A program made the position numbers and the translations under genes. From IMG/VR virus record IMGVR_UViG_2548876863_000015: DNA of 9,541 nt; one strand, written 5' to 3'. Under the pieces are notes generated by a model, which was not told where the DNA came from, did not search any database, and saw nothing but the letters and a program-made list of their open reading frames with translations. Positions 2,270-6,107 of the stretch are shown here, piece after piece. This DNA comes from a virus (Duplodnaviria > Heunggongvirae > Uroviricota > Caudoviricetes). Each line of letters starts with the position of its first letter. Within the stretch, counting starts at the first letter, position 1.

Positions 2270-2494
2270 ATGAATCAAAATACACAATTTCAATCACTAT
2301 CAGATCGCGTAATCCGTGAGGATGAATGCCGTAAGTTAACAGGAGTGTGCCGCACTACACGCTACGAACTGGAGAAAAAAGGGAATTTCCCGTCACGCCG
2401 TAATCTGGGTGGTCGTTCAGTAGGTTGGCTGCTTTCCGAGGTTATGGAATGGGTTAAAAGCCGGGATCGTATTAATTCAGGTAAGGCAGCGTAG
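2270..2494 (+). CDS. alpA: AlpA-family transcriptional regulator / excisionase-like HTH protein
   Basis: 74-aa ORF. Motif ...CRKLTGVCRTTRYELEKKGNFPSRRNLGGRSVGWLLSEVMEWVKSR matches the AlpA / phage-regulatory HTH family pattern (L-TG-S--T-Y-----G-FP----LG-R-V-W--SEV--W). Position immediately downstream of int is typical for Gram-negative PICIs and P4-like islands. Confidence 0.8.
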   Translation: MNQNTQFQSLSDRVIREDECRKLTGVCRTTRYELEKKGNFPSRRNLGGRSVGWLLSEVMEWVKSRDRINSGKAA

Positions 2495-2628: not shown

Positions 2629-2808
2629 CTATTCCTGCTCTTTGGCCTTGCGGCGCTGGCGGCGTTTGATTTCGCCGCGCATGGCTGCGTTTATAAACTG
2701 CCCCGTGCTTTCACCTTCTTCTTTCACGTTCTCCATGCCTTCAATAATTTCATGGGCAATACGTGCAGTTACAGATTGTGATTTTGCATTCTTTGGACCC
2801 GTTGCCAT
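2629..2808 (-). CDS. Small DNA-binding protein, ribbon-helix-helix-like (59 aa); candidate repressor
   Basis: Preferred start is the ATG at 2808-2806 (MATGPKNAKSQSVTARIAHEIIEGMENVKEEGESTGQFINAAMRGEIKRRQRRKAKEQE), preceded by a GAGGGG SD 6 nt upstream. The track start at 2847 is a GTG with no SD. SVTARI then two helices fits an RHH (Arc/CopG-like) layout by eye. Divergent from an operator-rich promoter region. Confidence 0.55.
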   Translation of the reverse strand: MATGPKNAKSQSVTARIAHEIIEGMENVKEEGESTGQFINAAMRGEIKRRQRRKAKEQE

Positions 2809-2828: not shown

Positions 2829-2912
2829 GGTGTAAGACAATATACACGAAAAAAAAATATTTTGAAGGGTTGACGTGTAAGACACCGTTATTTTACATTG
2901 TGTCTTACACCT
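2829..2912. promoter_or_regulatory. Divergent promoter region with three copies of the operator-like motif GTGTAAGACA(C)
   Basis: GTGTAAGACA at 2830-2839; GTGTAAGACAC at 2875-2885; inverted copy GTGTCTTACAC at 2900-2910. Plus-strand sigma70-like promoter TTGACG (2870-2875), 18-bp spacer, TACATT (2894-2899), with operators overlapping the -35 and following the -10. Minus-strand -10 TATATT (complement of 2839-2844) abuts the first operator. A-tract at 2850-2864 between the two promoters. Confidence 0.55.
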
Positions 2913-3007: not shown

Positions 3008-3211
3008 ATGTTAAATCATACCACACACCCGCAAGGGCGGGACTCGCACAACCTGAATAAATACATCTGGCGTTTTCTGGCCCTGAGTGCCGGAGAATCT
3101 CAAATCATCCACGTAACCGCCTGGACGGAACGCGAAGCGCGTAGCCGTTGCCCGTCAGGTTGTGTTGCTGTATTTGTCGCCCGTATTCGTCAGGGGGTGT
3201 GCCGTGCTTAA
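3008..3211 (+). CDS. Small conserved protein (67 aa), possibly Icd/Ash-like as seen in P4-family islands
   Basis: ATG at 3008 with GAGGT 4 nt upstream. MLNHTTHPQGRDSHNLNKYIWRFLALSAGESQIIHVTAWTEREARSRCPSGCVAVFVARIRQGVCRA. The WRFLAL ... EREAR ... VFVARI pattern resembles, from memory, small Icd-like/Ash-family proteins of enterobacterial P4-like prophages; not verified. The upstream extension to 2504 in the ORF track is rejected. Confidence 0.5.
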   Translation: MLNHTTHPQGRDSHNLNKYIWRFLALSAGESQIIHVTAWTEREARSRCPSGCVAVFVARIRQGVCRA

Positions 3212-3290
3212 AACCTTCCGCGTTTTTTCCCGTGCTGTTAACAAGCGCGGCTATACCGTTGGCATCACGCAGAACGTGAAGGCCGTTAAT

Positions 3291-3581
3291 ATGCAAGCGG
3301 CGATTGATTCAGTAATCAGTAATTCCGGTAAAGCAGGTTTATCACATGTAATTATTGCAGCAGTACATGAATTAAAAGGGGGGGCATTAATGAAGGAAAT
3401 TACATTACACGAAGCCGCTGAACGTGCGCACCAGACAGAAATTATTTGCCGACTTCTTGAGGTGTACCCTAATAAATTAAATGATGGTGATATATCCGCA
3501 TTAGCTGGCCTTCTGGCAAAACTTTCTGGAAGTGTTGCGCTGTGGTTAATTGATGAGAGATTTAAACGCTATGAACAATAA
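3291..3581 (+). CDS. Hypothetical small protein (96 aa if the start is 3291; 63 aa if 3390)
   Basis: In-frame ATGs at 3291 (GAAGG 9 nt upstream) and 3390 (very strong AAGGGGGGG SD 5 nt upstream). C-terminal part ...LHEAAERAHQTEIICRLLEVYPNKLNDGDISALAGLLAKL... looks helical. The track start at 3162 overlaps the preceding gene and is unlikely. Confidence 0.5.
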   Translation: MQAAIDSVISNSGKAGLSHVIIAAVHELKGGALMKEITLHEAAERAHQTEIICRLLEVYPNKLNDGDISALAGLLAKLSGSVALWLIDERFKRYEQ

Positions 3582-3813
3582 CAAACGCGTAATTTGCGAA
3601 TTGAATGAACTCACACAAAGCGCAATATCTTACAACAATGCCGTAAGTGAGATTATTAACGTCTGGTTTGAATCGCTGATAAATTGCGAGCGTGACGAGT
3701 CAACGACAAGATTAACCTTTGCCATTTCTGAATTACTGAATATTTCCACCAGCAAAATAGAGAGCATATCAGAGAAGATTAACGGCTTATCAGGTCACGC
3801 TATCGGAGAATAA
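3571..3813 (+). CDS. Hypothetical small protein (80 aa)
   Basis: ATG at 3571 overlaps the stop of the previous ORF by 11 nt (coupling). MNNNKRVICELNELTQSAISYNNAVSEIINVWFESLINCERDE... No recognised domain. Confidence 0.5.
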   Translation: MNNNKRVICELNELTQSAISYNNAVSEIINVWFESLINCERDESTTRLTFAISELLNISTSKIESISEKINGLSGHAIGE

Positions 3814-3818
3814 AAATA

Positions 3819-4118
3819 ATGAAACTTAAATATTCTGGCTTAACTGCCAGCGGCAAAACTCGCACTAAATTCATGTGCGGGGATATTTACCGCGATAAGT
3901 ACGGCGGCACGGTAATGATTAAGGGCGTGGAGGAACGGCGCGTAACTTACCGCCGTGAAGGCTACGAATATGATTGCGTTATGCCTGTTTATCAGTTCAA
4001 CCGTGATTTTTCTCTGGTACAGGCAGCGCCCCGCAGTAAGCCAACCAGCAGGGAGAAAGCACGCGCCAATATTCAGGAAATAAAAAAGATGCTTAACGTA
4101 TTCAGGGGTAAAAAATGA
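3819..4118 (+). CDS. Hypothetical small basic protein (99 aa), translationally coupled to the replication gene
   Basis: ATG at 3819 with GGAGA SD 9 nt upstream; stop overlaps the pri-rep start (ATGA at 4115-4118). No domain recognised. Confidence 0.6.
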   Translation: MKLKYSGLTASGKTRTKFMCGDIYRDKYGGTVMIKGVEERRVTYRREGYEYDCVMPVYQFNRDFSLVQAAPRSKPTSREKARANIQEIKKMLNVFRGKK

Positions 4119-5863
4119 AACTGGCACCGAACGTAAAAAAACAGCCACGCGGAATAAAACACAAAGACACAGAGGTGATTATTTTCGCGGGTAGTGATGC
4201 GTGGGCACATGCAAAACAGTGGCAGGAGCAGGACGGCCCCGCATCCGGCGATAATGTGCCTCCTGTGTGGCTTGGGCCAAATCAGCTTGCCGAACTTTAT
4301 GCACTGCAAATTGTTCCTGATGGAAAAAAACGCGTAAGGCTGTACCAGGCAGGAGAACTGGACTTGGTGGAGACCAAAAAGATTGGTCAGAAGCTGGCGG
4401 CGGCAGGCGTACAGGATGCAAAATTTTACCCCGAAGGAATGCACGGTCAGAAGTGTGAAAACTGGCGGCGCTATCTGAATGCTGAGCGTGAAAATATTGC
4501 CGCAGGGCTTACCATGCCGGAGCAGAAAAATACGCAACTGGCACAAATGGCAGACAGTGAGCGCGCCCAGCTGCTTGCCGATCGCTTTGATGGCGTTTGC
4601 GTACATCCTGAAAGTGAAATCGTTCACGTATGGCGCGGCGGGGTATGGTGTCCGGTCAGCACAATGGAACTTAGCCGCGAAATGGTGGCGATCTATTCAG
4701 AGCACAGGGCCACTTTCAGCAAACGCGTGATCAATAACGCCGTTGAAGCGTTAAAAGTTATTGCCGAACCAATGGGGGAGCCGTCCGGCGATTTGCTGCC
4801 GTTCGCCAATGGTGCACTTGACCTGAAAACGGGGGAATTTTCCCCGCACACGCCGGAGAACTGGATCACCACGCACAACGGCATTGAGTACACGCCACCA
4901 GCACCAGGGGAGAACATTCGCGACAACGCGCCAAACTTTCATAAATGGCTTGAGCACGCAGCCGGAAAAGACCCGCGCAAGATGATGCGTATATGTGCCG
5001 CGCTGTACATGATTATGGCGAACCGGTACGACTGGCAGATGTTTATTGAGGCCACCGGAGACGGCGGGAGCGGTAAAAGTACATTCACACACATAGCCAG
5101 CCTTCTGGCAGGGAAACAGAACACCGTAAGCGCGGAGATGACATCACTCGATGATGCAGGAGGGCGCGCGCAGGTTGTCGGGAGTCGTCTTATCGTCCTG
5201 GCTGACCAGCCGAAATATACAGGCGAAGGAACGGGCATCAAGAAAATCACGGGCGGCGACCCCGTGGAAATTAACCCGAAATATGAAAAGCGTTTCACGG
5301 CGGTAATCAGGGCGGTGGTGCTGGCGACCAACAACAACCCGATGATATTCACCGAACGGGCCGGAGGCGTGGCACGTCGTCGGGTTATTTTTCGCTTTGA
5401 CAATATCGTTAGCGAGGCAGAAAAGGACAAGGATTTGCCGGAGAAGGTCGCGGCTGAAATCCCTGTGATTATCCGCCGCTTGCTGGCTAATTTTGCTGAC
5501 CCTGAAAAGGCACGGGCTTTATTACTGGAACAGCGCGACGGTGATGAAGCACTGGCGATAAAGCAACAGACAGATCCGGTTATTGAGTTTTGCCAGTTCC
5601 TGAATTTTCTGGAGGAAGCGCGCGGCCTGATGATGGGTGGCGGTGGCGATTCCGTGAAGTACACGACCAGAAACAGCCTTTACCGCGTCTATCTGGCGTT
5701 TATGGCATACGCAGGAAGAAGCAAGCCGCTAAACGTGGCTGATTTCAGCAAGGCCATGAAGCCAGCGGCGAAAGTTTACGGACATGAATATATTACGCGA
5801 AAAGTTAAGGGAGTAACGCAGACCAACGCAATTACAACGGATGATTGTGACGCGTTTTTATAA
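4115..5863 (+). CDS. Replication initiator: primase-associated / D5-like SF3 helicase (P4 alpha-like primase-helicase C-terminal region)
   Basis: 582-aa ORF with SD AGGGG 6 nt upstream. Walker A GDGGSGKST; downstream Walker B-like run RLIVLADQP; LATNNNP and RRRVIFRFDN motifs typical of the phage/plasmid primase P4-family C-terminal NTPase domain; D5-N-like segment before the P-loop. Followed immediately by an iteron array. Confidence 0.9.
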   Translation: MKLAPNVKKQPRGIKHKDTEVIIFAGSDAWAHAKQWQEQDGPASGDNVPPVWLGPNQLAELYALQIVPDGKKRVRLYQAGELDLVETKKIGQKLAAAGVQDAKFYPEGMHGQKCENWRRYLNAERENIAAGLTMPEQKNTQLAQMADSERAQLLADRFDGVCVHPESEIVHVWRGGVWCPVSTMELSREMVAIYSEHRATFSKRVINNAVEALKVIAEPMGEPSGDLLPFANGALDLKTGEFSPHTPENWITTHNGIEYTPPAPGENIRDNAPNFHKWLEHAAGKDPRKMMRICAALYMIMANRYDWQMFIEATGDGGSGKSTFTHIASLLAGKQNTVSAEMTSLDDAGGRAQVVGSRLIVLADQPKYTGEGTGIKKITGGDPVEINPKYEKRFTAVIRAVVLATNNNPMIFTERAGGVARRRVIFRFDNIVSEAEKDKDLPEKVAAEIPVIIRRLLANFADPEKARALLLEQRDGDEALAIKQQTDPVIEFCQFLNFLEEARGLMMGGGGDSVKYTTRNSLYRVYLAFMAYAGRSKPLNVADFSKAMKPAAKVYGHEYITRKVKGVTQTNAITTDDCDAFL

Positions 5864-5876
5864 TTTTTTGTAAAAG

Positions 5877-6107
5877 CCCTCTACCCCATCTACCTGAATG
5901 AAATAAACGCATATTATTCAACATGATAAGTGGGTAGAGGGATAGGTAGAAGGCTAATAAAACCCCTCTACCCCCTCTACCATGATTAAGGTCGTTTGTG
6001 AGGGGCGGGTAGAGGATGGGTAGAGGGCCACGAAAAGTCCTCTACCCATCTGAAAGCCGCGCCATTACTGACCTGAAAGATGATTAGGTAGAAGAGGTAG
6101 AGGAGGT
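5877..6107. repeat. Iteron array; putative replication origin
   Basis: About 11 copies of an 8-10-bp motif (C)CTCTACC(C) / GGGTAGAG(G) in alternating orientation clusters: 5877-5895 (direct x2), 5932-5952 (inverted x2), 5962-5980 (direct x2), 6007-6026 (inverted x2), 6038-6049 (direct), 6087-6107 (inverted x2). AT-rich segment at 5896-5930. Located directly 3' of the replication gene, as in SaPI/PICI origins. Confidence 0.7.

Follow-up and report, generated by a model that had tools for sequence, protein, structure and literature searches.

A five-gene cassette ahead of the primase gene of an Escherichia coli phage satellite and its probable place in a helper-induced operon

Positions 3008–4118 of the IMG/VR virus record IMGVR_UViG_2548876863_000015 (Duplodnaviria; Heunggongvirae; Uroviricota; Caudoviricetes) hold a chain of small genes that runs into a primase gene, pri-rep. 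The whole stretch analyzed, here called the window, is 9,541 nt long. Judged by its sequence, it is a complete ~9.3 kb satellite of Escherichia coli of the phage-inducible chromosomal island (PICI) type and is not P4-like. We found that the chain belongs to a cassette with fixed end genes and a mosaic middle, and that two of its genes are fused in the window at a poly-G tract. We read the region as the promoter-proximal part of a rightward, helper-induced PICI operon in which the small genes would serve accessory and host-takeover functions, growth arrest among them. We consider this reading probable, with some reserve.

The type of island, the regulator RgdR and the Icd-like annotation of the first gene were already known. 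The cassette itself is very common in E. coli and sits in islands that affect the virulence of enterohaemorrhagic E. coli (EHEC) via RgdR. What the present analysis adds is a corrected gene count with the fusion of two genes, the architecture of anchors and mosaic, the recurrence of poly-G tracts at gene junctions, a predicted Tudor-like fold for RgdR and a proposed equivalence with a growth-arrest locus of strain ECOR61.

Gene content of the region

Open reading frames (ORFs) on the + strand fill positions 3008–4118 completely and continue into the primase gene (Table 1). The initial annotation, made from the sequence alone, had described coupled ORFs here that run into pri-rep, and this was confirmed. 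ORF1 and ORF2 overlap by 8 nt, ORF2 and ORF3 overlap by 11 nt, ORF3 and ORF4 are separated by 5 nt, and the primase ATG at 4115 sits within the ORF4 stop (ATGA overlap). It had also placed these ORFs between a regulated promoter and pri-rep and compared them with genes of phage satellites; we find them between a putative promoter with operator-like repeats and pri-rep, within a phage satellite. Its description of four ORFs of about 60–100 aa is right for the number of ORFs in the window but not for their size, since the second is 125 aa long and is a fusion of two genes, 2a and 2b.

Table 1. Features of the window discussed in the text.
Feature	Position	Strand	Remarks
ORF1, Icd-like, first operon gene	3008..3211	+	ATG to TAA, 67 aa, pI 10.1
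ORF2, 2a-2b fusion	3204..3581	+	GTG to TAA, 125 aa
Gene 2a	3204 to about 3386	+	phrog_3672
Poly-G tract G7	3378..3384	+	sets reading frame at 2a/2b junction; Shine-Dalgarno of 2b
Gene 2b	ATG 3390 to 3581	+	phrog_1478
ORF3, acidic	3571..3813	+	ATG to TAA, 80 aa
ORF4, RgdR orthologue (DUF4222)	3819..4118	+	ATG to TGA, 99 aa, pI 10.05
pri-rep	4115..5863	+	D5_N / DUF5906 / P4-family primase C-terminal domain protein
ori iterons CCTCTACC / GGTAGAGG	5871..6104	both orientations	at least 10 copies; immediately 3′ of pri
alpA, PICI activator gene	2270..2494	+	Pfam PF05930, E 3.4e-16; upstream of operon
YlcI/YnfO-family small gene	2629..2808	-	NCBIfam NF041551, E 8.8e-18; divergent from Icd-like operon
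Putative operon promoter region	2829..2911	+	TTGACG 2870-2875, 18-nt spacer, TACATT 2894-2899

Every ORF of the chain matches a known family, so the earlier statement that only the first ORF could be assigned to one does not hold. That reading had missed both the two-gene nature of ORF2 and the identity of ORF4 with the known regulator RgdR of the DUF4222 family. The two parts of ORF2 match different PHROGs, phrog_3672 (residues 1–58) and phrog_1478 (second half), and ORF3 matches phrog_5796 (E 1.8e-34). Matches to these three PHROGs had E-values of 1e-25 to 1e-37.

A G-rich, Shine-Dalgarno-like motif lies 5–11 nt upstream of most starts: GAGG for ORF1, GGGGG for ORF2, GGAGA for ORF4 and AGGGG for pri. 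For ORF3 there is only GAGAG, 11 nt upstream, as a weak Shine-Dalgarno candidate; its start at ATG 3571 is backed by the family alignment. The ratio of nonsynonymous to synonymous substitution rates (dN/dS) was calculated pairwise by the method of Nei and Gojobori against diverged orthologues with dS of 0.1–0.9. It was 0.21–0.37 in 2a, 0.27–0.37 in 2b and 0.23 in ORF3. In ORF4 it was mostly 0.1–0.3, with a value of 0.8 in one near-identical pair that comes from four substitutions. For ORF1, whose 3′ end overlaps the next gene, it was 0.29–0.69. All five genes are under purifying selection.

Architecture of the cassette in relatives

To place the region among its relatives, viral contigs were scanned with an RgdR alignment, which gave the 80 IMG/VR loci used here; the same scan of genome contigs gave 2 loci. 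Together with E. coli loci, the 80 IMG/VR loci yielded 78 with both an Icd-like gene and RgdR, representing 72 distinct segments of 706–2361 nt. Nine other loci end less than 1 kb upstream of rgdR. Genes were called chain-wise from left to right. Loci were chosen on RgdR and segments had to contain both end genes, so the presence of these two is by construction and their positions are what was observed.

The Icd-like gene comes first in all 72 cassettes. RgdR comes last in all 72, each time with an ATGA overlap between its stop and the start of the primase. In 67 of the 72, the gene immediately before RgdR belongs to the ORF3 family, with a 5-nt gap at 65 of the 66 junctions scored. The middle is a mosaic: 2a is present in 7 cassettes, the 2b family in 18, the module C3 in 36, C4 in 24 and C3-C4 fusions in 12. 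Further middle modules are long Ash-type Icd-like genes (15 cassettes), C8/C10, C12 and C21. Overlaps at the junctions are almost always 1, 4, 8 or 11 nt.

The Ash-type genes match the Icd-like NCBIfam model; the other alternative middle modules had no Pfam match. When the modules were compared with each other by hhalign, the only related pairs were the Icd-like and long Ash-type genes, and C8 and C10. No mutual relationship was detected by this method among 2a, 2b, ORF3, C3 and C4. None of the window's small ORFs matched a defence-system model in PADLOC.

Fusion of 2a and 2b at a poly-G tract

By its sequence and its annotation in relatives, the canonical cassette is made of five coupled genes, which encode the Icd-like protein (67 aa), 2a (61 aa), 2b (63 aa), ORF3 (80 aa) and DUF4222/RgdR (99 aa). 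The nearest relative, the locus of E. coli O157:H7 strain SS TX 313-1, is 99.8% identical to the window, and the sole indel is in the poly-G tract, which is G6 there and G7 in the window. In the G6 allele of SS TX 313-1, RefSeq annotates separate genes of 61 and 63 aa with overlapping stop and start (TAATG). Sakai Sp7 is likewise annotated in RefSeq with five small genes, 2a and 2b being separate. In the G7 allele the C-terminus of 2a is altered and 2a is joined in frame to 2b, which makes the ORF of 125 aa. A +1 slip in the tract (G6 to G7) would have fused the two genes while 2b kept its own ATG. The tract lies 5 nt upstream of that ATG, and because it is the ribosome-binding site of 2b, free 2b could still be produced from the G7 allele.

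We searched for the alleles with an 80-nt query. The exact G7 80-mer was found in 12 complete E. coli genomes of several serotypes and the G6 version in 17. A shorter megablast query of 41 nt containing AAAAGGGGGGG had been masked by the low-complexity filter and gave a false "No match". This was a filter artefact, since locus L003 carries the exact sequence and the G6 version of the query was not masked. One strain has G9, which adds one Gly codon and leaves 2a and 2b separate, and one IMG/VR locus has G8, which is in the third frame. The G6, G7, G8 and G9 alleles occur in otherwise 98–100%-identical islands, as a length polymorphism of a homopolymer that reaches at least 7 nt at a position where its length alters the gene product, which is the sequence pattern of a phase-variable (contingency) locus. 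G7 is a real allele rather than an error specific to the window.

Full-length 2a-2b fusions of 125–130 aa are also present in protein databases, in lineages 60–74% identical to the window, together with third-frame variants and an Icd-2a fusion. The exact 2b protein occurs in 2816 assembly-index blocks, and its matches are islands of the window's type only. An AlphaFold2 model of the fused ORF2 made from a 6-sequence alignment was of low confidence, with a predicted local distance difference test score (pLDDT) of 48; it consists of a beta-beta-alpha-beta arrangement followed by two long helices.

The same kind of junction was found in a second place. C3 and C4, a non-homologous pair in the same slot, meet at a tract of G5–G11 that precedes the ATG of the second gene by 5 nt, in the context GAAAATG(n)TTATGCGT (examples are L006, L034, L048 and L062). 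The two genes are separate with tracts of G8 or G11; with G7 or G10 they are fused into a product of ~150 aa (12 unique cassettes), and G9 leads into the third frame. These cassettes repeatedly show a poly-G tract at a gene junction, in alleles with and without fusion. Such junctions may be a cheap means for satellites to vary their accessory proteins.

The junction between the Icd-like gene and the next gene is also fused in some loci, where a G5–G7 tract encodes ...ARIRQG(G)(G)V. Fusions of this kind (P0012; L047:2693 onward) are a 127-aa Icd-2a fusion and one of 228 aa in which an Ash-type gene is joined to an ORF3-family gene. Elsewhere in the window, a second poly-G tract (G9, 6953–6961) lies just past a 53-aa ORF at 6788–6949 and upstream of the TerS homologue, and overlaps the region of an ORF at 6939–7568. 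Its length in relatives is G8 in L001, L003, L008 and L011, G9 in L010 and G10 in L009.

ORF1 is related to Icd of phage P1

ORF1 matches the NCBIfam model NF033153 "Icd-like" with an E-value of 1.4e-17 and 63.5 bits against a cutoff of 25. P1 Icd matches the same model with 52.6 bits. When the ORF1 family alignment was compared with P1 Icd by hhalign, the probability was 94.9% (E 4e-8), with 36% identity over 50 columns and the shared core FIWRF...A.TE.EAR..P.G...F.AR. By these alignments, ORF1 and P1 Icd are truly homologous. The assignment as Icd/Ash-like, offered as a possibility in the initial annotation, is borne out by both the model score and the hhalign comparison.

According to the P1 record, the leader ORF icd, which shares an ATGA overlap with ant1, acts as an inhibitor of cell division, and ant expression apparently depends on it. 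The immI operon of P1 (c4-icd-ant) and the window have in common a small leader ORF that overlaps the next gene. They differ in that identity is only ~36% over 50 residues and in that the partner in the window is a chain of satellite genes, not an antirepressor. No Rfam match to a C4-type antisense RNA, as in P1 immI, was found in the window.

A tblastn search with the Icd-like protein against 50,697 phage records did not recover P1 and found one satellite-like record, L088 (LR881103.1, "Escherichia phage vB_KppS-Ant", 16.5 kb). This record was deposited as an induced prophage, yet it has the layout of a satellite: int, a regulator, a 324-aa protein with a C-terminal Icd-like domain, two small genes, a primase and a head module, in this order. 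It is probably a capsid-forming PICI and not a phage.

ORF4 is an orthologue of RgdR

ORF4 matches Pfam PF13973 (DUF4222) over residues 18–68 with an E-value of 1.5e-24 and 85.7 bits against a cutoff of 27. It is 94% identical to Sakai ECs_1581 (RgdR) over all 99 residues without gaps. RgdR (ECs1581) activates the LEE1 promoter of the enterocyte effacement locus (LEE) and type III secretion, represses motility and binds DNA non-specifically (Flockhart et al. 2012, PMC3378721). Its island, OI-51, plays a part in the colonisation of sheep (PMC3378721). RgdR was stated to be encoded by all E. coli PICIs analysed by Fillol-Salom et al.

The protein of the window differs from RgdR in the motif that gave the regulator its name, since its residues 20–22 are CGD and not RGD. 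Position 20 varies in the DUF4222 family (R, C, N, H, P), and G21 and D22 are invariant. ORF4 and ECs1581 are both 99 aa long, have a conserved core at residues 20–68 and a basic C-terminal part, and are encoded just ahead of the primase gene; the window protein has C20 in place of R20, and S6, A10, K27, R45 and N61. Four of these six substitutions (C20, A10, K27 and R45) are shared with the ED1a variant ECED1_1787, from which ORF4 differs in keeping K35. Activity on LEE1 and motility has been published only for ECs1581 and C1493, and the CGD variant ECED1_1787 was inactive. Because ECs1581 with R20C alone stayed active and the ED1a variant is inactive, the LEE and motility activity of ORF4 is not predictable from its residues.

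An AlphaFold2 model of ORF4 made from 50 sequences had a pLDDT of ~90 over residues 21–70. Five strands form a barrel, accompanied by a short helix; residues 77–97, in the basic C-terminal part after it, form another helix. Foldseek searches of the PDB with the model retrieved KOW-type barrels at non-significant E-values (best 0.03), and across the PDB and BFVD the matches were weak and of a generic small-barrel kind. Going by this model, assignment of RgdR to the Tudor/SH3/KOW-like barrels is reasonably secure and offers a lead to its mechanism; contact of RgdR with RNA polymerase is a hypothesis. Sequence profile searches of the PDB with RgdR, the Icd-like protein and ORF3 found nothing, and tblastn with RgdR against the same 50,697 phage records gave no match.

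Residues 1–140 of the primase (4115–4540, phrog_2850) stay conserved beside RgdR at 57–74% identity. These N-terminal ~140 residues are kept even where the remainder of the primase is a different allele, as in Sakai Sp7 and L056. Their sequences suggest that RgdR and the N-terminal domain of the primase travel as a unit.

Promoter region and induction

The repeat GTGTAAGACA(C) occurs three times, at 2830, at 2875 and inverted at 2900, and overlaps the putative operon promoter in the manner of an operator. Two of the copies form a perfect 11-nt inverted repeat. Promoter-like sites numbered 6 in the region compared with 6.1 expected in shuffled sequences, so the promoter is a match to the consensus only; we favour it because of its position and the perfect 11-nt inverted repeats. 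No terminator-like site was found on the + strand between 2900 and 6200.

The YlcI/YnfO-family gene upstream is divergent from the operon. PGAP, the NCBI annotation pipeline, places a 180-nt CDS at the same position in relatives, and homologues are present in most related loci. Its product is a candidate repressor that may act on the GTGTAAGACA(C) repeats. Gram-negative PICIs have been described as unidirectionally transcribed (PMC6092414). In EcCICFT073, helper phages activate alpA, and AlpA activates the genes downstream of alpA; AlpA supplied from an arabinose-induced complementing plasmid, with no helper phage, gave excised circular PICI DNA (PMC6092414). By extension, the operon of the window island would be induced through AlpA.

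Proposed function of the cassette

The host-takeover reading draws on a locus described as "prophage-encoded" and "PCD" (programmed cell death) in ECOR61, which arrests growth upon expression of the phage accessory gene orf24 (Silas et al. 2023, bioRxiv 10.1101/2023.04.06.535777). Suppressor insertions were found in an Icd-like gene and two hypothetical genes. Reconstitution needed all six linked genes, including the primase, and removal of the Icd-like gene abolished the effect (bioRxiv 10.1101/2023.04.06.535777). The coordinates of the three genes given there in supplementary file 21 (QOYT01000045.1:9309-9675, 9131-9317 and 8940-9132) correspond to genes of 366, 186 and 192 nt, the first two sharing 8 nt and the last two 1 nt. 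The sizes of 2a and 2b and the overlaps along Icd/2a/2b are those of the G6 relatives of the window, so the layout is the same, and the six linked genes equal Icd, 2a, 2b, ORF3, RgdR and pri in number. Two differences were noted: the ECOR61 Icd-like gene has 366 nt (121 aa) and an N-terminal extension, compared with 204 nt (67 aa) in the window, and 2a and 2b are fused in the window. Likened by annotation, sizes and overlaps, the 2a-2b module of ECOR61 is very probably the 2a-2b of the window family.

In the mechanism that we propose, phage infection or induction would switch the operon on. The Icd-like protein, 2a and 2b would then cause an arrest of growth or division, a role suggested by analogy with the ECOR61 locus and P1 Icd. 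RgdR would modulate host transcription by non-specific DNA binding, possibly by contact with RNA polymerase, with ORF3 as the partner that almost always precedes it. Through the overlaps of stops and starts, output of the small proteins would be linked to that of the primase. We prefer host takeover and growth arrest to a role in replication or in helper derepression because the ECOR61 locus has genes of like sizes and overlaps. This link gives the Icd-like protein, 2a and 2b a concrete role that can be tested, and it suggests that some so-called abortive-infection systems of prophages may be early operons of satellites that are switching on.

Several points weigh against host takeover. The 2a, 2b and ORF3 proteins of the window island are known from their genes alone. 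The ECOR61 equivalence is drawn from annotation, sizes and overlaps, with an Icd-like protein that is longer there (121 vs 67 aa), and the arrest reconstituted in a laboratory strain was described as muted (bioRxiv 10.1101/2023.04.06.535777). In the G7 allele, where PGAP treats 2a as a pseudogene, the function of 2a may be lost. The operon promoter is, as said, a predicted consensus match. The phenotypes of RgdR were seen in uninduced cells (PMC3378721), which implies basal expression of rgdR, and RgdR may work for the host and not for the satellite. A more specific version of the proposal is that the cassette from the Icd-like gene to RgdR is a modular, phage-sensing growth-arrest unit of E. 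coli PICIs and is identical with the ECOR61 system, its set of proteins being toggled between separate, fused and third-frame products by hypermutable poly-G tracts at the gene junctions, with RgdR as an RNA-polymerase binder of the CarD or UvrD C-terminal-domain type. Action of this type would go through the Tudor-type barrel of the model. We regard this version as tentative and rather doubtful.

The uninduced phenotypes bear on the idea that these are lysogenic-conversion genes that benefit the host, namely virulence or motility regulators comparable to RgdR and PerC/Pch that are expressed while the island is integrated and not in the course of the satellite cycle. Uninduced EHEC that lacks ecs1581 or OI-51 shows reduced type III secretion, adherence and colonisation of sheep, and PICIs have been reported to carry LEE activators. 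Yet the cassette is common in LEE-negative strains, its genes lie in an induced operon directly before pri, the 2a homologue is silent in most tested conditions, and the Icd-like gene, 2a, 2b and ORF3 are without any virulence link, all of which make this explanation unlikely. We also consider it quite unlikely that the small proteins assist pri-rep in replication, for instance as cofactors for origin binding, loading or priming. Such a role would account for the translational coupling to the primase, with the RgdR/pri ATGA overlap in 72/72 cassettes, and would agree with the non-specific DNA binding of RgdR and its constant place beside the conserved first ~140 residues of the primase. However, in EcCICFT073 rep and ori alone, with expression from an arabinose promoter, are enough for a temperature-sensitive plasmid to replicate (PMC6092414), which argues against an essential replication role of the small genes. 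The middle genes are also swapped freely among islands with 90–100%-identical primases, and RgdR has host-wide transcriptional phenotypes.

The initial annotation had proposed helper derepression or interference. No evidence was found for derepression; the broader idea of accessory factors directed at host or helper fits the mosaic middle and the ECOR61 locus. As an explanation in its own right, derepression or activation of a helper prophage (as by P4 epsilon) or a block of helper morphogenesis (SaPI-type, after the Staphylococcus aureus pathogenicity islands) seems very unlikely to us. What speaks for it is an analogy of position only, and a fast-evolving mosaic middle would suit an arms race with helpers; but the searches detected no homologues of P4 or SaPI factors, an incoming Gram-negative PICI was not observed to induce a phage (PMC6092414), and the known interference by E. 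coli PICIs maps to packaging genes (Rpp) elsewhere in the island (PMC6739421). Finally, the cassette, or at least ORF2, might be decaying, with the G7 frameshift marking a pseudogene and the rest hitch-hiking. PGAP flags 2a as incomplete and labels it a pseudogene in a G7 strain, and third-frame G8 variants with junk tails exist. We consider decay highly improbable, given that dN/dS is well below 1 for all genes and that the G7 frame stays open through 2b, which keeps its start and ribosome-binding site. The full-length fusions in lineages 60–74% identical to the window and the occurrence of the exact 2b protein in 2816 blocks speak against it as well. Host takeover, with growth arrest, is the reading that we retain.

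The satellite as a whole

Membership of the PICIs was judged by the criteria for Gram-negative PICIs of Fillol-Salom 2018 (PMC6092414). The genes int (185–1408), alpA and pri are all on the + strand in the order and orientation of a PICI, and an origin with iterons follows pri-rep immediately (Table 1), in the organisation described for PICI origins in PMC6092414. Imperfect direct repeats of 73 nt (att) flank the island at 96–168 and 9394–9466. There are no lysis or tail genes, and the size of ~9.3 kb compares with roughly 10–15 kb for the group. By PHROG matches, the only structural-type genes of the window are a TerS homologue and a capsid-protein homologue. They lie to the right of the iterons, where there are further small genes as well. 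In E. coli genomes the island was found between cspD/yljB and clpS. Rfam returned no RNA family within the window.

Other features of the island were recorded in passing. A 257-aa ORF (1405–2178), whose start overlaps the int stop (ATGA), is an accessory gene of the int-alpA slot. Among otherwise near-identical islands only some have it, and L001 lacks it; it had no significant match in Pfam, NCBIfam, PHROG or PADLOC, the best being one weak PHROG (E 0.021). After the TerS homologue, a 53-aa ORF (7580–7741) matches positions 89–125 of 162 of the TerS PHROG, like a duplicated fragment. The 307-aa "major capsid protein" (7731–8654) matches only the C-terminal part of major-head PHROGs. Between the capsid-like gene and attR, non-coding DNA (8669–9362) contains short palindromic units ATC.CGATATGGGGATCACCATATCGGG at 8669 and 8787 and an 88-nt direct repeat (8695–8782 and 9232–9319, 95% identical).

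Comparison with known systems

The initial annotation had likened the region to the slot that holds kil, eta and epsilon in P4 and xis in SaPIs. The P4 analogy is positional only: none of the ORFs had a Pfam, NCBIfam or PHROG match named for kil, eta or epsilon. The left operon of P4 (kil, eta, cI, epsilon, orf151, alpha) resembles the window in having small early genes upstream of a primase-helicase gene. It differs in its immunity, which in the window is not RNA-based, the regulators being the AlpA activator and the divergent YlcI-like gene. Between PICIs and P4 only AlpA, Pri-Rep and Int are distantly related, and the lineages are independent (PMC6092414). The comparison with SaPIs fails in that xis is not in this slot; induction is controlled by AlpA, encoded upstream (PMC6092414).

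Among the closest known systems are EcCICFT073 and OI-51 / CP-933C / Sakai Sp7, which have the same order of int, alpA, small genes, RgdR, pri-rep and ori iterons. The island of the window is smaller (~9.3 kb) and lies at cspD-clpS, not at the OI-51 site. Sp7 has a full head module, whereas the window has the TerS and capsid-protein homologues, and 2a and 2b are fused by G7 in the window. Sakai Sp7 carries the five-gene cassette as ECs_1577 to ECs_1581, followed by the primase gene ECs_1582. The lengths of 2a, 2b, ORF3 and RgdR are equal in the two islands (186, 192, 243 and 300 nt), and the window is identical to Sp7 at 74% for the Icd-like protein, 67% for 2a and 69% for ORF3.

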